Below are positions 2 to 35,147 of a stretch of DNA of 46,621 nt, piece after piece (within the stretch, counting starts at the first letter, position 1; every line of letters starts with the position of its first letter). A program made the translations under genes and the position numbers. Under the pieces are notes generated by a model. That model searched no databases and was not told the DNA's origin. It saw only the letters and a list, made by a program, of their open reading frames with translations. The DNA comes from Clostridia bacterium (GTDB lineage Bacteria > Bacillota > Clostridia > Oscillospirales > CAG-272): contig JAFTQT010000078.1 of assembly GCA_017462615.1 (NCBI GenBank), positions 1-46,621 on the forward strand, read 5' to 3'.

Positions 2-3000
2 TTCAAGGCAGCAGTCGCAGCTGGCGGCGAAATCACCCTGACGGATAATATCACGCTTGACGCGGGCATTATCATCGACAAGGACGTTACCATCAACGGT
101 AACGGCAACACCATCACCTTTACGGCGGGTACCGCGCTGGAGACTCCCATTTGCAATAGTGCAGATGCTTCTCCCGCTGTACGCACAGTAGAGAGTTATG
201 CCTTCAACCTGGTAGGCGGCACCGTTGTGTTCAACAATGTGACCGTTTCCGTGCCTGTTTACACGGCACCTGCCGAGGGCGAGGAGGAAGTTCCCGCCGT
301 CAAGACCGGTATCTTCGTGTTCACCGGTGCGGCTGACGTGACCTTCAATACGGTTGTGACCGATCAAGGTTACATCACCGTGATGTTTGGCGCACCCGGC
401 AAGCTGACCGTAAACGAGGGCACCAGCTTGGGCGCCAGCGGCTACCTCAATTATGCACTGGGCTCCTCTAAGGACGCTCAGAACGCCGAGACCGGCGTCG
501 CTCCCACCGTTGTGATCACCGGTGGTACCATCTCTAACGAGACCACCGTTTTATCCGGTGACTTGGCTCGCTTTGACTCGAGCGTCAATATGACTATCTC
601 CGGCGGTACTTTTGTCTCCCGCAGTGACGCTATTTACATTAGCGGCGCTGCAACGACTGCCGCTTCCATCAAGATGACGGCCGGTACTGTTGACGCTGCT
701 GCTTCCGCTTTCAACATGTACGGTCCCGTTTCTTTGGAAATCACCGGCGGTACCGTGACAAAGAACATCAAGTACCAGGGCACCGCCACGGCAAAGATCG
801 AGAACCTGACTATGGAGTCCGGTGCTTTGGTCACCATCGGCGGTACCGGCAACGTTACTGTCAAGAATCTGATCATGGTGTCTCAGACCTGCTTTAGCAT
901 CAGCGGCTCTGGTGCCATCGTCATTGATGATTGTACCATGACAGGTAACGGCTCCGGCGGCGCGATCTATATTGCCAGCGCCAATGCCAAGAACGTTACC
1001 GTCAAGAACTCCAGAATCTACAGCTTCCGTGGTCTGCGCTTTTCCGCAGCGGTTACCGGTGGTACTTACACCATTGAGAACTGTACCTACCGCCCCCAGT
1101 ATACCGGCACTGTAGATACGATTAGCGACTACTGCACCGCCGGTTTGCTGATTGGTTACTCTAGCGACATTACATCTGCCAACTGTACCTTTAATGTTAT
1201 TGGTTGTAATATCAGCAACCTCGAGTACGGTACCGGTGAGACCCTTGCTTCTGTGAGCAAGACGGGTGCATCGTATGTTTTTGTTGACTTTGCCAGCTCC
1301 GGCAACGCTTGGAAGTTTGATGGCTGCAACATCAATTGGAACAACAGCACCTACACCTTCTGTGCTTACAAGAACGTTAATCTGACGCTGATCGACTGCA
1401 CCGTAACCGCCACCTCTACCCTGTCTGCCAGCACTGGCACGGGCGGTATGTTCCAGAACAACCAGGCCGGCGTTCTGACCATCACCGGCGGTACCTACAC
1501 CTACACCGGTAACCGTCCCCTGCTGCGTGTTTCCGACAGTAACCTTACCGTCAACATTGACGGCGCTACCTTCATCAACAACGGTCCCAGCTACCTGTTC
1601 ATGCTGAACAACGGTAAGTTGAATATCCAGAACGCTACTCTGACCCAGAAAGGCGAGGCCATCGCAATCATGCTGGTCGACGCAACCAGCGGTCCCCTTA
1701 ACCTTAAGGATTCCTCCGTTGAGGCCTGCGAGGGTTATGTGGCTATGGATATTTGGGGCACGCACGATGTTATTGCTAACAATGTAGTGGTTGAGGGTAC
1801 TATCCAAATTGCAGAGACCCGCACCACGGTTGTAACGCTCGTCGACGTTGTTTATGACGAGTTGATTGACACCAACGGCATTGCTGAGATCACCACCACC
1901 AAGGTGACGTATTTCGAGATCGGCGGTGTGAAGTATACCTGGGATGAGGTTGTGGCCAACCTCAAGACGGGTGACACCGTTACCATTGTCGGTGCTGTTG
2001 ACTGGCCGCTTGACCTTAGTACCGAGGTTGTTTTCACCATTGATTTCAACGGCTACGTCGTTCCCGCTCCCGTCTTCTACGCACACACCAACGTTACCTT
2101 TAAGAACTTTAACCTCACCGTTGCCTCCGGCCATACCCTGACCATTCCCGCAGGTGCCACCCTCACCCTTGGAGAGGGGTGTGTGGTTACCAACACTAAC
2201 TTTGGTGTACTGGCAGCTGCCGGTACCAGTGCTACCTCCGCAGGTGGCTGTGCCATCAATAATAGCGGTAATTTGACAATCAACGACGGTGCTACCATCA
2301 ACGGTACCATCTACGCCGGCGGCGTAGTCGTCATCAACGGCGGTACCTTCCGCAACGGCTCTTACACTCACCACCGCGCCGACAAGTCTCTGGTATTCAT
2401 GAACGGTACCGGTGATCTGACCATCAACGGCGGTGACTTTGAAGCTACCTTTGATGCATATCAGGGTGACGGCGAGGCCAACAGCTTGATCTGCAACAAC
2501 GACGGTAATGCGAACGTTACCATCACCGGCGGTACCTTTACTGCCCACGGCGGTCACGCTGCTTACCTCTATTCCAACAGCTCTGTTATCATCACCGGCG
2601 GTACCTTCACCACCGATATGACCGACAAGGCTCCTCTTTACATCGGTGCGATGCACGGCAAACGCTATGATGCTTCCAGAGCCACCGAGCTGAAGAACTT
2701 CACCACCAACGGCGGCTCCTGCGGCGTGCAGTTCACAATCCTCTACGAGTGGCACTTTACCGTTGAGAACGTAACTGTGAACAACGCTGCTAAGTACGTG
2801 TTTATGGTTGACAATGCCGCAAGTGCCAGCGCTTCCACCGTTACCTTCAAGGGCGGCCGTTACACCCTCACCGGTGAGACTGCCGACGCTGCTGTGCTCT
2901 ACGTTGGTGCCAATGCTAACGTCACTCTGAACGGCGTTATGTTCATCAACGACAACGCTACCAGCACTGCTGCGATCCTTGCCTCCGGCGAGACTGCAAA

Positions 3001-3745
3001 CGTCACGCTTACCAACGTGATCGTGCTTGCCAACAACGGTGCCGCTTACAAGACTGATACCGAGACCGTTAACTTCGGCTCCGCTTCTGTGAAGTATGGC
3101 GGCGACTCCTACAAGCTCTGGATGTCCAACGCTGGTGATACCACCGACGAGGCTCTGAAGCTCGACAACGGCGCATCCGTTCGCGTTGACGCAACTGCAG
3201 AGATGACCGGTATCCGCTTCACCGGCTCCGCTACCAAGGTTGAGGGTGCTGTTTACGGCATCATCATCGCTCCCGCTGACTACGTGGCTGCTGCCGGCGC
3301 CTTCACCAAGGAGGCTCTGGACACTTGGGCTGCTGCCAAGAGCATTGCTGTTCCTTACGTCATGGCTGAGGCTCAGAAGAGCTTGCACGACAATGGTGAC
3401 GGCACTGTGTCCTTCAGCGTGGCTCTCGTAGATATCCAGTCCGGCAACTACGACCGCAGCTTCGCAGCTGTTCCTTACGTTACCGTTAACGACGAGACTA
3501 CCTACGGCGATTACGATTCTACCAACAACGCCCGCTCCATGAAGAGCGTTGCAACCGAGGCTCTGGCTGACCTGCTGACCGATGCGGAGCATTCCGAGTT
3601 GGGTAACACGGATGCGGATAAGGCTGCAAAGTACATTCGCACTATCACTATCGCTGCAGGCGAGGTTGAAGGTAAGGAAGCAGGGACCTACCACTCCCAG
3701 TACTCTGCTGATCAGCGCACTGCTCTGAAGGCTTATATTGGCTGA
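2..3745 (+). CDS. Large cell-surface protein with beta-helix-like repeats, 5'-truncated by the window
   Basis: The frame is open from position 2 (FKAAVAAGGEITLTDNITLD...), so the ORF-track start at 227 is internal. The protein is T/G/A/N/V-rich with recurrent 'ITGGTF'/'INGGTF' units. It has a distinct C-terminal domain (GASVR..GIRF..YGIIIAP..FAAVPYV..RSMKSVA) and strong codon bias (GGT/GCT/ACC/AAC). Confidence 0.85.
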   Translation, partial: FKAAVAAGGEITLTDNITLDAGIIIDKDVTINGNGNTITFTAGTALETPICNSADASPAVRTVESYAFNLVGGTVVFNNVTVSVPVYTAPAEGEEEVPAVKTGIFVFTGAADVTFNTVVTDQGYITVMFGAPGKLTVNEGTSLGASGYLNYALGSSKDAQNAETGVAPTVVITGGTISNETTVLSGDLARFDSSVNMTISGGTFVSRSDAIYISGAATTAASIKMTAGTVDAAASAFNMYGPVSLEITGGTVTKNIKYQGTATAKIENLTMESGALVTIGGTGNVTVKNLIMVSQTCFSISGSGAIVIDDCTMTGNGSGGAIYIASANAKNVTVKNSRIYSFRGLRFSAAVTGGTYTIENCTYRPQYTGTVDTISDYCTAGLLIGYSSDITSANCTFNVIGCNISNLEYGTGETLASVSKTGASYVFVDFASSGNAWKFDGCNINWNNSTYTFCAYKNVNLTLIDCTVTATSTLSASTGTGGMFQNNQAGVLTITGGTYTYTGNRPLLRVSDSNLTVNIDGATFINNGPSYLFMLNNGKLNIQNATLTQKGEAIAIMLVDATSGPLNLKDSSVEACEGYVAMDIWGTHDVIANNVVVEGTIQIAETRTTVVTLVDVVYDELIDTNGIAEITTTKVTYFEIGGVKYTWDEVVANLKTGDTVTIVGAVDWPLDLSTEVVFTIDFNGYVVPAPVFYAHTNVTFKNFNLTVASGHTLTIPAGATLTLGEGCVVTNTNFGVLAAAGTSATSAGGCAINNSGNLTINDGATINGTIYAGGVVVINGGTFRNGSYTHHRADKSLVFMNGTGDLTINGGDFEATFDAYQGDGEANSLICNNDGNANVTITGGTFTAHGGHAAYLYSNSSVIITGGTFTTDMTDKAPLYIGAMHGKRYDASRATELKNFTTNGGSCGVQFTILYEWHFTVENVTVNNAAKYVFMVDNAASASASTVTFKGGRYTLTGETADAAVLYVGANANVTLNGVMFINDNATSTAAILASGETANVTLTNVIVLANNGAAYKTDTETVNFGSASVKYGGDSYKLWMSNAGDTTDEALKLDNGASVRVDATAEMTGIRFTGSATKVEGAVYGIIIAPADYVAAAGAFTKEALDTWAAAKSIAVPYVMAEAQKSLHDNGDGTVSFSVALVDIQSGNYDRSFAAVPYVTVNDETTYGDYDSTNNARSMKSVATEALADLLTDAEHSELGNTDADKAAKYIRTITIAAGEVEGKEAGTYHSQYSADQRTALKAYIG

Positions 3746-3769
3746 GCCTTAGTTGATCGATTCAATACC

Positions 3770-3798
3770 CCTGCCGCGCTGCTGCGCAGCGCGGCGGG
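3770..3798 (+). other. GC-rich intergenic stem-loop without a U-tract (possible mRNA-stabilising hairpin)
   Basis: cctgccgcgctgc-tgc-gcagcgcggcggg, a 13-bp stem with one G-U pair, lying between the surface-protein stop and the small-peptide RBS. Confidence 0.5.
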
Positions 3799-3836
3799 TT
3801 CCCGAGCCCCTTAATTCTTAAAGGAGGATATTTTTG

Positions 3837-3965
3837 ATGAAAATGAATTATGAAGCGCCTGTCATGGAGCTGATCTATTTCCGCTCGGAGGACATTTTGG
3901 TAGCTTCGGATTTGGATGATGTTATCAGTGGCAGAAACTTTACTGATGAGATGGCCGAGATGTAA
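3837..3965 (+). CDS. 42-aa small peptide with a YxxP leader-like motif (MKMNYEAPVMELIYFRSEDILVASDLDDVISGRNFTDEMAEM)
   Basis: Strong RBS AAAGGAGG at 3820-3827, ATG at 3837, TAA at 3963-3965, followed by a terminator. It is below the ORF-track length cut-off. Confidence 0.8.
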   Translation: MKMNYEAPVMELIYFRSEDILVASDLDDVISGRNFTDEMAEM

Positions 3966-4005
3966 TCCTGTTAAGGCTTTTACACCCTTCCAACGAAGCG
4001 ACAAT

Positions 4006-4037
4006 AAAAAGAACCGCACATCGTGCGGTTCTTTTTT
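4006..4037. terminator. Intrinsic terminator (potentially bidirectional)
   Basis: aaaaagaaccgcac-atc-gtgcggttctttttt. Confidence 0.85.
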
Positions 4038-4064
4038 GTCTTGGGTGTTTTGGCTTCGCCACGG

Positions 4065-4313
4065 GTGCGCCGCCGGGGGTGGGGCGTGTGGCGGGCGCTT
4101 CGTGAAGCGCCCCTACAGGTCATAATAAAATTTTATGCGTAGCGGGTGTGCGTCGTGGATGCGGGAGGAGCAAGCCCCTCCCCTACCGGCGAGATATCGT
4201 TTTGTGCGCCGCCGGGGGTGGGTCGCGGATACACCTCATCCGTCACCTGCGGTGACACCTTCCCCTCAAGGGGAAGGCTATGTTAGATGGCGAGACACTG
4301 TGCGCCGCCGGGG
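4065..4313. repeat. Composite REP-like palindromic repeat cluster
   Basis: Three copies of gtgcgccgccgggg (4065, 4204, 4300). Two hairpins end in CTAC, i.e. GTAG on the minus strand (4092-4116, 4162-4186). A double hairpin gtcacc-tgc-ggtgac / ccttcccct-ca-aggggaagg lies at about 4242-4277. Confidence 0.7.
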
Positions 4314-4364
4314 AAAATAAAAAAGCCTCTCCGTGTGAAGGGGTAGAAAATTTCAGCAAAGGTA

Positions 4365-4394
4365 TTGACATTATGATGCAATGCGTGATATAAT
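4365..4394 (+). promoter_or_regulatory. Sigma-A promoter of the putative antitoxin RNA
   Basis: TTGACA (4365-4370), 18-nt spacer, extended -10 TGaTATAAT (4386-4394). Confidence 0.8.
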
Positions 4395-4400
4395 AATAAC

Positions 4401-4485
4401 GCAGGGCACCGATGACGGTTGCTTCCTCTGCAGCAATTAAAAGATAACCGCTATGTTTGGGAAGGCAGGGCGGTTATCTTTTTTT
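4401..4485 (+). ncRNA. Putative type I antitoxin sRNA (about 85 nt; ends approximate)
   Basis: A consensus promoter is followed by a short stretch with no evident RBS/ORF that ends in a terminator. It is convergent with, and overlaps the 3' end of, the 29-aa hydrophobic peptide gene. Confidence 0.65.
4439..4485. terminator. Bidirectional terminator shared by the sRNA and the toxin gene
   Basis: aaaagataaccgc (4439-4451) pairs with gcggttatctttt (4470-4482), with A/T tracts on both sides. Confidence 0.75.
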
Positions 4486-4563
4486 GTTTTGTATAAAACA
4501 AGATATAATGGCAACTACAAGCATAGCAATTTGGATCAAATTGCTCCAAGTAACATACTCCAT
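4474..4563 (-). CDS. Putative type I toxin, 29-aa single-TM peptide (MEYVTWSNLIQIAMLVVAIISCFIQNKKR)
   Basis: RBS GGAGGTGA before ATG 4563. Hydrophobic core plus basic KKR tail, own consensus promoter, and a structured 5' UTR of about 100 nt. Not in the ORF track. Confidence 0.8.
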   Translation of the reverse strand: MEYVTWSNLIQIAMLVVAIISCFIQNKKR

Positions 4564-4671
4564 TCTATCACCTCCCTCCAGCGAGGAAGGCAAAAGATCT
4601 GACTTCCTCGTGATCGGGGAAGCAACCGCCACCATTCAATGGTGCTCTGCGGGTACCGTAGTACCGGGAGT

Positions 4672-4700
4672 ATTATACCATAATTGGCGGATGTTGTCAA
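4672..4700 (-). promoter_or_regulatory. Sigma-A promoter of the putative toxin mRNA
   Basis: Minus strand: TTGACA (4700-4695), 17-nt spacer, TGgTATAAT (4680-4672). Confidence 0.8.
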
Positions 4701-4714
4701 GAGTGGGGAGAGGG

Positions 4715-4795
4715 GAATGCAGAATGAGGTTGCAACGCACATTGTGCGCCGTCGCCTCATTCTGCATTCTACATTCTGCATTCTGCATTCTGCAT
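4715..4795. repeat. Heptamer tandem repeat (CATTCTG x5) with an inverted partner
   Basis: cattctg-cattcta-cattctg-cattctg-cattctg at 4758-4792. The upstream gaatgcagaatgagg (4715-4729) is complementary to cctcattctgcattc. Confidence 0.8.
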
Positions 4796-4825
4796 CGTTC
4801 AAAGGTTTTGGTGAGGGTTGGTGAA

Positions 4826-4896
4826 TTCTTTTTTCGCGTAGGCGAAAAAAGAAGAGGAAGGGAGCCCCTTTTGCAAAAGGGGCTCCCTTCCTTTTT
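4826..4896. terminator. Two tandem hairpins downstream of ppa (likely terminator)
   Basis: ttcttttttcgc-gtag-gcgaaaaaagaa (4826-4853) and aggaagggagcccctttt-gc-aaaaggggctcccttcct (4855-4892). Confidence 0.65.
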
Positions 4897-4905
4897 CAAT
4901 TTTCC

Positions 4906-32836: not shown

Positions 32837-33739
32837 ATGAAAAAGATGCTTTGCTTGATACTGATCGTTTTGCTGATCTTTCTCACCGCTTGTGCGTCGG
32901 GGCCGTCGTACAAAAAGGCTCAAAAGCTGTTATCCTCCTATGAGGGGGATGTGATCATTCGGACATATTGTGCGGAATTCCTGCAAGGCACTATGTTTTT
33001 CGTTTCCTCCGGATGTATAGACCGTGCTGTGGACGATGCCGCGACGCGCATTGTAAAGGGGCTTGCGGAATTAGAACTCACGGGAGAGGTGGAAGAGAAG
33101 ATCTCCGATGAAATTTTGAAGTTTGATATCGTTCAGAACGATCTCCACTTGAAAAAACACGAGGCGCTCGTATTGCCCGTGCCGATCGGCACGTACTGGA
33201 TAGAGGTGGATGACTTGATCTACCGCGTGACGGAGGAGCGTATTTGCTTGGTTGATACGCATCTCGGAGAGGGCAGGGTGCTGAAATATGACGAGACATT
33301 TATGCGCTATCTCAGAGCCGTTCGCGACTTCTGGCCGAATAATGGTTCTTCTGTTATGTATGATTGCAAAAGCGTGCAGACCGATGAGAACGGGTACGCT
33401 TTGCCCGCATATTCCTACAAGGCAGAGTCTGCGGTGGATATATATGTGACGGGCTTTACGCCTAATATCCCCCACGATACTCTTTTTTCGACATACCATG
33501 AGGTGCGCTTTACTATCGTGGCGCGTGAGGACTTTGAAGGTGAAGTGCACATCACGAGCAGAAAAGGCGATGCGGGCGACGAAGAGTCGTTTCACGTAGA
33601 TTTGAAAGCGGGCGAAACGGTGGAAATAAAAGCGGATACCTGGGGCTGGACTTCTGACTTCGTCACAGAGGCCTCCGCATCCAACACGTATGTAACTGTG
33701 CATTTTGTCAATATTCCTCAAGGCGATGCGTCTGCGTGA
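32837..33739 (+). CDS. Lipoprotein of unknown function
   Basis: RBS GGAGGG, MKKMLCLILIVLLIFLTAC signal with lipobox LTAC. Confidence 0.82.
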   Translation: MKKMLCLILIVLLIFLTACASGPSYKKAQKLLSSYEGDVIIRTYCAEFLQGTMFFVSSGCIDRAVDDAATRIVKGLAELELTGEVEEKISDEILKFDIVQNDLHLKKHEALVLPVPIGTYWIEVDDLIYRVTEERICLVDTHLGEGRVLKYDETFMRYLRAVRDFWPNNGSSVMYDCKSVQTDENGYALPAYSYKAESAVDIYVTGFTPNIPHDTLFSTYHEVRFTIVAREDFEGEVHITSRKGDAGDEESFHVDLKAGETVEIKADTWGWTSDFVTEASASNTYVTVHFVNIPQGDASA

Positions 33740-33743
33740 ATCA

Positions 33744-33789
33744 AGCAAAACGCCCGACAGATATTTCTGTCGGGCGTTTTGCTGTTTTT
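33744..33789. terminator. Bidirectional terminator
   Basis: agcaaaacgcccgacaga-tatt-tctgtcgggcgttttgct between convergent genes. Confidence 0.85.
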
Positions 33790-33812
33790 CTCACCCCGTT
33801 TGCGGGGATTTT

Positions 33813-35147
33813 TTATTTTTTCCGTTTTTGAACGTTGCCCTTTCCCTCGATTTCGGCAACTGTCGTCACGTGCTTGTGCTCAATGGGGCGCCATTCTACG
33901 TGACTGAAAAGCGCGGCAAGAGAAATGGGAATATAGGTCATCATAAAGATGGGGAATGAAAAAAGATACACCACGGCGCGCCACTTTTTACAATGGATGC
34001 TGTGCCATTCCGTTGCCAGCGTTATCGCCCCCACCACCAGCAGCAACGCATAAGCAAAGGTAAAAAAGGAGGCGATACACCCCAAAAGGGGGCCGGAAAA
34101 CCAGCCGTAGAGGATCAGATGCGCCACATAAAGGCCGGTGAGCGTGACCAACTGAATGAGAGAGAGCAAAAAGGCCGGCAGGATACTGAGCAACAGGTCG
34201 ATGCAGGGCCATCGCAGGCGTAGTGCGCCCTGTAAGAGTTTGCCGCCGTAATGGTAGCATACCTGGAAGAAGCCCTTGGCCCAGCGTTTTCTTTGCCAGT
34301 AGGATTGGCGGAAGGTTTCAGGCTGCTCGTCAAACAGCTCCGCGCCGTGGCAATAGCCCACCCGCTCTCCGTGGAGGACACTGTCAACGGTGAATTCGAT
34401 ATCCTCCGTCAGCAGAAAGTGCGCCCAGCCGCCGTTCCGTTCAATGATCTCCGCATCCACCAGGAACCCCGTGCCGGAAATGGCGGCGCTGGCCCCCAGC
34501 AGCGCCCGGGGATTGTTCAGATGGCGGGATTCCCGCAGAAACCACAGCCCGTAGCCCGCGCTGATCCAGTTGGTGCCGTAGTTTTTGGAATTGCGATAGC
34601 AGGTGAGGATCCGGTTTCCCGCCACGTGTGCCTTGTCCATTTCCGTGATGAATTGCGGGCGTAGGACGTTGTCGGCGTCAAAAAAGAGATAGGCGCTGTA
34701 GGCGCGAAAGCCCTCGGTGCGCTGAATGTGCGAAAGCAGAAATTGCAGCGCGTGTCCCTTTCCGCGAGGGCCGTCGCCATCCCGCTCCAGCACCGTTGCA
34801 CCGTGCTGCCGTGCCACGGCGGCGGTGCTGTCGGTGCAATGATCCGCCACTACGAATACCCGAAAGCGCTCCTGCGGATAGTCCTGTGCCGCAAGGCTCT
34901 TCAAAAGCTCCGGCAGCACCGCCTCCTCGTTGCGGGCGGCGATCAGTACCGCATAACGGCTGGTCTGATCAGTAGGCGGATAGCGTCTGGGGCGCTTGAT
35001 CAACGATACGAATATATACACGAATTGATAGGCGTACAGCACGGCCAGCAGAATACCGACGCCGAGGCTGAAGCCGAATCCGAAGCGCTCCACGGTGGTG
35101 AGCTTATGACCGTGGAGCAAAAAATCTCTTAAAAGCTCAAAAAACAC
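33813..35147 (-). CDS. GT2 processive-type membrane glycosyltransferase
   Basis: IAARNEE, FFDADN (DxD), LTEDI and QRKRW (QxxRW) motifs; N- and C-terminal TM helices; GTG start. Confidence 0.9.
   Translation of the reverse strand: MFFELLRDFLLHGHKLTTVERFGFGFSLGVGILLAVLYAYQFVYIFVSLIKRPRRYPPTDQTSRYAVLIAARNEEAVLPELLKSLAAQDYPQERFRVFVVADHCTDSTAAVARQHGATVLERDGDGPRGKGHALQFLLSHIQRTEGFRAYSAYLFFDADNVLRPQFITEMDKAHVAGNRILTCYRNSKNYGTNWISAGYGLWFLRESRHLNNPRALLGASAAISGTGFLVDAEIIERNGGWAHFLLTEDIEFTVDSVLHGERVGYCHGAELFDEQPETFRQSYWQRKRWAKGFFQVCYHYGGKLLQGALRLRWPCIDLLLSILPAFLLSLIQLVTLTGLYVAHLILYGWFSGPLLGCIASFFTFAYALLLVVGAITLATEWHSIHCKKWRAVVYLFSFPIFMMTYIPISLAALFSHVEWRPIEHKHVTTVAEIEGKGNVQKRKK

Follow-up and report, generated by a model that had tools for sequence, protein, structure and literature searches.

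TxpA has been described among the 'holin-like toxins', and TxpA-like sequences in Clostridiales are known from Fozo et al. 2010 (PMC2887945; here and below, statements on cited papers refer to the parts of their text that were available). The Shine-Dalgarno (SD) sequence of TxpA ranks among the strongest in Bacillus subtilis (PMC3531473), and the sprG1/SprF1 pair, whose toxin SprG1 is the structure 7NS1, was discovered by homology to txpA/RatA (PMC8309996). Interactions between the 5′ and 3′ ends of toxin mRNAs are also mentioned, as a general statement, in the T1TAdb paper (PMC8594479). We analyzed a 46,621-nt stretch of DNA from a Clostridia bacterium (contig JAFTQT010000078.1 of assembly GCA_017462615.1; hereafter the window, at its full length), in which an original prediction had placed, at positions 4365 to 4700, a module resembling type I toxin-antitoxin systems whose convergent genes overlap at their 3′ ends. 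Our analysis, which works from sequence, agrees with that claim: the predicted promoters and terminator, together with a layout that is conserved in homologues, make it probable, at about three chances in four, that the locus is a chromosomal type I toxin-antitoxin module consisting of a peptide of the TxpA/SprG kind and a convergent small RNA (sRNA).

Layout of the module and the family of its peptide

The module is unannotated and spans approximately 340 bases, within which two extended -10 promoters converge (Table 1). All elements listed in the original prediction, namely the promoters, the open reading frame (ORF), the repeats and the hairpins, were found again at their positions. Exact matches to TTGACA-N16-18-TATAAT occur four times in the 46.6-kb window compared with 0.01 expected from 100 shuffles; two of them are the promoters of the module, and the remaining two head ordinary protein genes. 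An inverted repeat of 14 nt (4413-4426 / 4618-4631, 93% complementary) is extended by more flanking matches when the sequence is read directly. A DNA search of 60 relatives returned five loci, which all keep one arrangement: the sRNA promoter is followed by the 5′ segment of the sRNA, the terminator, a small convergent ORF, its strong SD and the hairpin of the leader. Since the layout is conserved in the relatives, it is not due to chance.

Homologous peptides without the convergent promoter would have spoken against the original prediction, but the outcome favours it: in 46 of 54 homologous loci, at least 11 of the 12 consensus positions of the sRNA promoter are matched. The toxin promoter is mostly weaker in the relatives, reaching at least 9 of 12 in 18 of the 54 loci when 130 nt of leader were examined. 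In type I systems, the antitoxin promoter is usually strong and the toxin promoter weaker. The window is atypical of this asymmetry in that both of its promoters are perfect. In the relatives, the -35 hexamer of the sRNA promoter often lies within an inverted repeat (GCGG-TTGACAAAA-CCGC, GTATTGACAAATAC or CTCTTGACAAATCAAGAG). Because this repeat reads as a terminator on the toxin strand, toxin-strand termination and sRNA promoter activity may be physically coupled.

The predicted peptide is of the short single-helix type, with a polar N-terminus and a basic C-terminus (MEYVTWSNL-hydrophobic core-NKKR). We collected 56 distinct homologous peptides of 23-38 aa, which have a hydrophobic core and a KKK/KKR end and share 12-45% identity with the window peptide. 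An N-terminal pattern, M-x-T-[YWL]-E-x-L, is conserved across the 56 in our own reading of the alignment and of the hidden Markov model consensus, and a strong SD 5-9 nt upstream of the 23-38-aa ORF is kept across the family. At E<=0.01, 20 of the 56 peptides matched the Pfam family PF16935 (Hol_Tox), which we take to be the TxpA family of putative holin-like toxins, and no other Pfam family was matched. The scores were 13-17 bits among close kin (the window clade) and 32 bits, which passes the cut-off, for a locus from another family of the order (L012). When the 56-peptide profile was compared with all PDB sequences, the sole match was SprG1 (7NS1, 7ns1_A, 31 aa), which aligned end to end at E 2.8e-5. 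As judged from these sequence comparisons, the peptide appears to be a divergent member of the known TxpA/Hol_Tox/SprG superfamily and no new family. The earlier suggestion of a possibly uncharacterised family does not hold for the peptide, TxpA-like sequences of Clostridiales being already on record in PMC2887945. No match to the Fst family was returned by Pfam scans at E up to 10 and 0.01, in which Hol_Tox alone appeared, and a single 12.7-bit row for YoaJ from NCBIfam was discarded as meaningless.

The original prediction had also noted that the module is absent from the list of open reading frames, and protein annotation does miss it: the exact window peptide is not in a collection of 15 billion proteins, four of seven family peptides tried (the window's included) are missing, and the remaining three stand there without a name. 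A word-indexed protein search with the 53-aa window ORF that contains the peptide was empty, a result confined to exact 5-residue words and lengths of 29-93 aa and thus not evidence of absence. A tblastn search with a 28-aa family peptide against phage and plasmid records found none at E<=1, a weak negative with the low-complexity filter on. At one locus (L012:1465-1602, +), the toxin frame passes its usual stop (45 aa, ...DITKKEITAP...), and the near-identical L075 ends ...DITKKK; the two differ within the homopolymer run that encodes KKK, which could reflect either a sequencing error or a real frameshift.

The persistence of the 23-38-aa ORF, the SD, the N-terminal pattern and the hydrophobic core in 56 sequences at 12-45% identity, 20 of which match a curated peptide family, makes it highly improbable that no peptide is made and that the locus is a convergent pair of non-coding RNAs, or two strong promoters around a terminator, with a fortuitous ORF. 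What speaks for such a reading is that the ORF is short, that its exact peptide is absent from the protein collection and that the KKK/KKR codons double as the U-tract of the sRNA, so that their conservation could be partly RNA-driven.

The two genes would share one bidirectional terminator, inside the stem of which the toxin stop codon lies, and the U-tract of the sRNA, as read from the sequence, is the complement of the toxin's KKR codons. The stem AUAACCGC/GCGGUUAU recurs across the family, but it belonged to the search pattern; the G preceding GCGGTTAT, which was outside that pattern, is present in 57 of 58 loci. In the mRNA 5′ domain, GGCGGUUA is complementary to UAACCGCC, a segment of the same mRNA made up of the stop codon and the 5′ arm of its terminator, and the base that extends this pairing to 8 bp, again not imposed by the pattern, occurs in 57 of 58 loci.

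Table 1. Predicted features of the module, in order of window position (MFE, minimum free energy)
Feature	Position	Strand	Description and basis
Second terminator-like site, CCCCUUCACACGGAGAGG then CUUUUUUAUUUU	4310..4343	-	just past the sRNA promoter; script search and direct reading; absent from stricter scan
Antitoxin sRNA promoter	4365..4394	+	TTGACA, 18 nt, TG-n-TATAAT; 12/12 match
Predicted antitoxin sRNA, ~90 nt	4400..4488	+	start inferred from -10 box, end from terminator
sRNA 5′ hairpin, CGCAGGGCACCG-AUGA-CGGUUGCUUCCUCUGCAG	4401..4434	+	copy of toxin mRNA 5′ domain; MFE structure
Shared bidirectional terminator, stem AAAAGAUAACCGC / GCGGUUAUCUUUU	4439..4482	both	perfect 13-bp inverted repeat including the toxin stop codon; arms 4439-4451 / 4470-4482
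Toxin ORF, 29 aa + stop, MEYVTWSNLIQIAMLVVAIISCFIQNKKR	4474..4563	-	codons 4563..4477, stop 4474-4476; ORF translation, family alignment
Extended Shine-Dalgarno, GGAGGGAGGUGAU	4567..4579	-	direct reading of sequence
Leader hairpin CGAGGAAG...CUUCCUCG ('B:C')	4582..4610	-	just upstream of SD; inverted repeat 4582-4592 / 4600-4610, 11 nt, 91%
Toxin mRNA 5′ domain, CGCAGAGCACC-AUUGAAUGGUG-GCGGUUGCUUCC	4618..4651	-	with anti-SD CUUCC; inverted-repeat partner of 4401-4434
Predicted 5′-terminal hairpin of toxin mRNA, GGUACUACGGUACC	4652..4665	-	MFE structures; start inferred from -10 box only
Toxin promoter	4672..4700 (read 4700-4672)	-	TTGACA, 17 nt, TG-n-TATAAT; 12/12 match

The module is housed in a 1.16-kb intergenic gap that contains other repeats as well (window 3746-4365 and 4700-4905). 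These include GC-rich copies of GTGCGCCGCCG at 4300-4310, 4744-4754 and, by eye, ~4205, a run of the heptamer CATTCTG at ~4757-4795 and a long inverted repeat at ~4716-4767, upstream of the toxin promoter. Upstream of the module, an open frame of >1247 aa (2-3745, +) is truncated by the window start; it is rich in T/G/N/A repeats and resembles a beta-helix surface protein. Downstream of the module, ppa-like and obg-like genes lie on the minus strand.

The predicted SD sequestration in the leader and the copied 5′ domain

The leader of the toxin mRNA is predicted to close its own SD. The toxin transcript folds with z -5.2, and its SD is of the GGAGGUGAU type, with GGAGGT invariant in 13 of 13 window-type leaders. 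The predicted probability that the SD is unpaired is 0.003 in the window, where none of 30 controls with shuffled upstream sequence was equally closed. Its mean over the loci is 0.082 compared with 0.245 when the upstream part is shuffled, the value falls below 0.1 in 37 of 54 loci, and opening of the SD would cost 6.8-14.6 kcal/mol (ddG) in all of the leaders folded (10/10). In the consensus fold of the 13 most window-like leaders, the SD is paired to the CUUCC in the 5′ domain, and this pairing encloses the B:C hairpin. This hairpin, which had already been noticed upstream of the ribosome binding site, proved to be conserved, with both-side (compensatory) changes in 4 of its 5 pairs among the 13 leaders. 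Folds of single sequences give an alternative register, in which the 5′ CUUCC pairs with GGAAG and the hairpin CUUCCUC with the SD; the SD is closed either way. The motif GGCGG is present in 44 of 54 leaders. Since a strong SD is locked by the anti-SD of its own 5′ end, the primary toxin transcript is predicted to be translationally inert.

A stable fold is likewise obtained for the predicted 90-nt sRNA (-39.2 kcal/mol, z -6.0), so that both predicted transcripts fold far better than their shuffled versions. A covariance model, which the original prediction had named as a check of the locus, was built from 21 relatives with the window left out (model R1); it recovers window positions 4397-4489 (+) at 60.1 bits and E 7.4e-12. 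At E<=1e-5, R1 matches 178 copies (111 + 67) in the 168 sources searched (100 + 68). Rfam gave no match at the gathering score across the whole window, and at E<=10 only far-sub-threshold, chance-level rows touch 4360-4700. Other R1 matches in the window's genome (contigs C50, C20 and C23) and at window 3931-4044 and 33738-33813 were set aside as ordinary terminators with AACCGC/GCGGTT stems and without the peptide. Among 110 distinct homologues of the sRNA 5′ hairpin, both-side changes occur in 8 of 9 helix pairs and 80% of the cells are paired; none of 500 shuffles reaches the observed covariation measures, and sliding the partner halves the pairing. The two arms of an sRNA also pair better with each other than with those of sRNAs from elsewhere (0 of 5000 permutations), a check that is independent of the model alignment. 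RNAalifold returned only the terminator from a 42-sequence sRNA alignment, because differences in loop length shift the 5′ arms.

With few exceptions among the loci, sRNA and toxin mRNA start with the same domain of approximately 35 nt. Its form is X-CCG-loop-CGG-U-X′ in the sRNA, which is the hairpin, and X-CC-loop-CGGU(A/G)G-GCGGUU-X′ in the mRNA, i.e. with an insert of 5-7 nt. X and X′ vary among loci and agree within a locus, with cognate identities of 6.9/9 and 6.5/10 compared with 4.9 and 4.6 for non-cognate pairs. The summed cognate similarity is 562 versus 402+-12.8, and none of 10,000 permutations reaches 562; kinship among the loci makes this permutation test conservative. What is new here is that the 5′ hairpin of the sRNA is a locus-specific copy of the toxin mRNA 5′ domain. 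The 5′/3′ complementarity that the original prediction had pointed out is thus real and co-varies locus by locus: the potential 5′-3′ duplex has -44.3 kcal/mol for cognate and -28.3 kcal/mol for non-cognate partners (0 of 5000 permutations), with a cognate rank of <=3 in 38 of 42 loci.

Three explanations of this copy were considered, the first two of which are not mutually exclusive. We tentatively prefer, without being convinced of it, the idea of the original prediction, a fold-back in the manner of hok, in which a toxin mRNA that has read through the shared terminator closes on itself. In the predicted fold of the window read-through toxin RNA, the 5′-3′ helix has ~26 bp (z -8.0) and the SD is still closed. 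In 30 of 52 loci, the toxin strand has a second terminator-like site at the sRNA promoter or immediately past it, compared with 15 of 52 in the opposite orientation (Fisher p 0.005; the kin are not independent), and given such a site a read-through toxin mRNA could fold 5′ to 3′. Several features weigh against the fold-back. The second terminator is not seen in 22 of the 52 loci, and the shared terminator also comes with a U-rich tail on the toxin side. The mRNA copy always carries the 5-7-nt insert GGU(A/G)G, and the differences between the copies are mostly transversions at the edges (5′ arm, 41 of 61; 3′ arm, 33 of 67), which give no clear direction of substitution. The structure counts for the sRNA hairpin come, moreover, from an alignment fitted to the model, which favours structure. 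To our knowledge, hok-like fold-back has not been described for TxpA-type toxins of Firmicutes, and should such a form exist, these Gram-positive toxins would come under the hok paradigm as well.

Alternatively, the same module may use its copied 5′ domain in trans, as in the par Fst/RNA II pair and SprA1/SprA1AS, which seems possible but rather doubtful. The two RNAs would dock at their complementary terminator loops, after which the sRNA 3′ arm would pair with the extreme 5′ arm of the mRNA, or the sRNA CUUCC with the SD, and the leader would be held closed. The mRNA 5′ arm is more complementary to the 3′ arm of its cognate sRNA than to those of other loci (-6.03 versus -4.85 kcal/mol, 0 of 5000 permutations), but the reciprocal pair, the sRNA 5′ arm with the mRNA 3′ arm, shows no such specificity (812 of 5000). 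In 25 of 42 loci, the stability of the trans duplex equals or exceeds that of the stem within the sRNA. The sRNA hairpin would need opening, and duplex energies over the whole domain (cognate -25.0, non-cognate -24.0) show no separation. In the window, GCAGAG of the mRNA is the perfect Watson-Crick partner of the sRNA CUCUGC, whereas the sRNA's GCAGGG needs a G-U pair. An anti-SD-like pyrimidine motif follows the hairpin core in 30 of 42 sRNAs, but 12 of the 42 are without it, and trans pairing would leave the likeness of the two RNAs' 3′ arms unexplained. Precedents are found in par, with its 5′ repeats and shared bidirectional terminator, and in the SprA antitoxins, which act via their 5′ ends despite a 3′ overlap (PMC8167048). 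For the window clade, it is plausible that the sRNA simply carries a spare copy of the anti-SD: CUUCC/CUCCC occurs in all 13 window-clade sRNAs, but the motif is missing in 12 of the 42 sRNAs.

A more inclusive idea, which we hold to be unlikely in its full form, is that the antitoxin gene was built from an inverted copy of the toxin leader domain and that a single repeat serves three ends, namely closure of the read-through mRNA, a protective 5′ hairpin of the sRNA and a trans mimic that replaces or competes with the anti-SD module, in a widespread clostridial and phage-borne element.

Overall, keeping to the preferred fold-back, we propose the following putative course of events. The minus strand would give a toxin mRNA of ~235 nt (~4665 to ~4432) for the 29-aa single-helix peptide with its KKR tail, and the SD of this mRNA would be locked by the 5′-domain anti-SD CUUCC around the small internal hairpin. 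The plus strand would give the ~90-nt sRNA from its consensus promoter. The two RNAs would be perfectly complementary over ~55 nt, made up of the final four codons with the stop and of the 3′ untranslated region (UTR). By analogy with txpA/RatA, bsrG/SR4 and sprG/SprF, this 3′-end duplex would mark the toxin mRNA for RNase III decay and keep it untranslated. A fraction of the toxin transcripts may pass the shared terminator and end near 4318, at the second terminator at the sRNA promoter, which would give an RNA of roughly 345 nt; in such a long mRNA, the 3′ tail, being the complement of the sRNA 5′ domain, would pair with the mRNA's own 5′ domain. The likeness of the two RNAs would then be a by-product of 5′-3′ pairing.

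Distribution, expression and function

When 185,579 species genomes were scanned for the terminator with its KKK codons, at least 120 stretches matched. Among the matches listed, most are metagenome-assembled genomes (MAGs) labelled Oscillospiraceae, Ruminococcus, Acutalibacteraceae, Lachnospiraceae, Peptostreptococcaceae or Clostridia, and two are Sporomusa genomes. Isolates stand behind locus L074, from Anaerotruncus sp. G3(2012), and behind L053 and L054, from Sporomusa. A strict filter that asked for an SD and a 20-45-aa ORF ending at the stop in the stem was passed by 58 of 131 pattern matches, with peptides of 23-38 aa. In the order of the window's genome, the exact pattern occurs in 28 of 401 genomes (22 of the 324 of good quality) and in 12 of 30 families, with up to six copies per genome; the reversed control pattern had no matches in the genomes of the same order. 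The exact terminator pattern is also found on 41 IMG/VR viral contigs (L134-L174), most of them with strong sRNA-model matches. A patchy, multi-copy and phage-associated spread is typical of type I modules.

Copies may be clustered. One genome has four tandem copies 330-660 bp apart (G223:C1:291028-292414), three sources have 4-5 sRNA-model matches each (L125, L122 and L060), and three loci come from one viral contig. Terminator pattern matches on MAG contigs labelled Haemophilus (L048, L084, L090, L107, L115 and L126) have a frame STDLEF..KSIKHKKK and no toxin-like ORF, with only weak sRNA-model matches of ~39 bits in L048 and L126; these contigs may hold a different element or be mis-binned.

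A DNA self-search had found no second copy in the window's genome, a MAG that is 78% complete, but the covariance model overturned the view of a single copy. It gave an sRNA-like match of 45.6 bits at G000:C110:2376-2466 (L176:1501-1591, minus), where a divergent copy has a convergent ORF MPMYVTWELLFIFAGFVLSLLAYVDNHNKKD, a peptide MYVTWELLFIFAGFVLSLLAYVDNHNKKD and a variant terminator stem AUUAACCG. No clear sRNA promoter is visible at this second copy, and the pattern scans missed it because of the variant stem.

Three metatranscriptomes from three studies contain contigs of 183-190 nt that are 95-99% identical to the locus and cover 4424-4636 (190 nt over 4424-4612; 183 nt over 4455-4624 plus 12 further matching letters). 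About one fifth of the sampled sequence words is present in three RNA runs. Positions 4300-4411 and 4636-4760 are without contig cover, which is uninformative on expression. In a bovine gut metatranscriptome (run X1), a 98-nt contig with a depth of 106 combines an sRNA-like 5′ domain with the terminator of the family. Its likeness to the window is <90%, so that it belongs to another locus, and it looks like the abundant antitoxin sRNA of a related module.

Some of this material weighs against a type I toxin-antitoxin module. The metatranscriptome contigs are unstranded, do not show transcript ends and could stem from DNA carry-over, such that they speak for presence only. Against Hol_Tox, the window peptide itself scores 13.4 bits (E 0.075), below the cut-off of 23.3 bits, and its link to the superfamily therefore runs solely through its relatives and the profile. 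As the terminator was fixed in the gathering pattern, its invariance is by design, and divergent members, such as the second copy in the window's genome, were missed by it. That the peptide is toxic, that its ORF is translated and that the two RNAs are made are predictions.

With its toxicity predicted only, the peptide could instead be a conserved small membrane protein with a cis-antisense regulator and no killing or addiction, for example a membrane or envelope modulator whose dose is tuned by the sRNA. We consider this improbable, because the family includes the proven toxins TxpA and SprG1 (7NS1, the sole PDB match), and because a sequestered SD, a near-consensus antisense promoter, a patchy multi-copy spread and viral contigs are traits of type I toxins. 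It does find some support in the neighbourhood of the locus, which is flanked by housekeeping genes (ppa/obg) and a large surface-type protein with no obvious mobile element, and in the reports that TxpA is non-toxic in E. coli and YhzE-2 in B. subtilis (Fozo et al., PMC2887945).

With the sRNA covariance model and the peptide alignment, 178 loci are found in the DNA searched, among them loci of uncultured Clostridia from gut and rumen, of two Sporomusa genomes and of 41 viral contigs; both tools can be used for annotation, and the link to the TxpA/SprG family offers a ready functional hypothesis. In the locus-specific leader copy, co-evolution of RNA elements can be studied in a clean and testable form. 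The copy could account for the coexistence of many paralogous modules that do not interfere with one another; if true, co-variation of the repeat would be a built-in cognate specificity among up to six copies per genome.

Comparison with known systems

In the literature searched, as far as its text was available, no description was found of a clostridial RNA family of this kind or of an antitoxin that copies a toxin leader; Table S5 of Fozo 2010 and T1TAdb could list members. The closest systems by peptide are txpA/RatA (B. subtilis), bsrG/SR4, bsrE/SR5 and sprG/SprF (Staphylococcus aureus), which belong to the same superfamily according to the Hol_Tox matches and the profile match to SprG1 (7NS1). 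The txpA/RatA group has the same convergent 3′-side antisense RNA overlapping the end of the ORF (PMC8594479), txpA has the same unusually strong SD (PMC3531473), and the toxin leader of bsrG sequesters the SD in the same way (PMC8309996). However, the predicted antitoxin here is only ~90 nt long with a ~55-nt overlap, compared with an overlap of ~120 nt for RatA (PMC3531473). Unlike the txpA/RatA group, the locus has one shared bidirectional terminator that contains the stop codon, and its antitoxin opens with a copy of the toxin 5′ domain, which is not reported for that group in the portions of text examined.

The par locus of pAD1 (Fst / RNA I - RNA II, Enterococcus faecalis) shares with the window the convergent genes, the common bidirectional terminator, a repeated 5′ element and two contact regions (PMC8167048). 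However, the repeats of par are direct on the DNA and give complementary RNAs, whereas those of the window are inverted and give look-alike RNAs, whose complementarity is confined to the hairpin arms or to a read-through transcript. Par encodes Fst, and the peptide here is not Fst-like. In sprA1/SprA1AS and sprA2/SprA2AS of S. aureus, the RNAs overlap at the 3′ side, yet the contact that matters for function is reported to join the 5′ ends and to prevent access to the ribosome binding site (PMC8167048). The SprA antitoxins are thus a precedent for an antitoxin 5′ domain with a role of its own, but the SprA peptides are related to Fst, and at their 5′ ends the antitoxins are, in the ordinary way, partially complementary to the translation start and do not copy the leader.

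The likeness to hok/Sok and aapA/IsoA is that the toxin mRNA could close by 5′-3′ pairing and stay inert, here through ~26 bp in the read-through model of the window and a cognate energy of -44 kcal/mol. In contrast to hok and aapA, this pairing would require terminator read-through, which is predicted only, and the antisense RNA overlaps the 3′ end of the toxin mRNA and not its 5′ region. Additionally, hok and aapA encode proteobacterial peptides of families unrelated to the TxpA type. The original prediction had called the locus a hybrid architecture and possibly an uncharacterised family. The second part is overstated for the peptide. Since the peptide and the 3′ overlap are as in txpA/RatA, the terminator and the 5′ repeat as in par and the possible fold-back as in hok, the term hybrid is a fair one for the layout of the RNAs.

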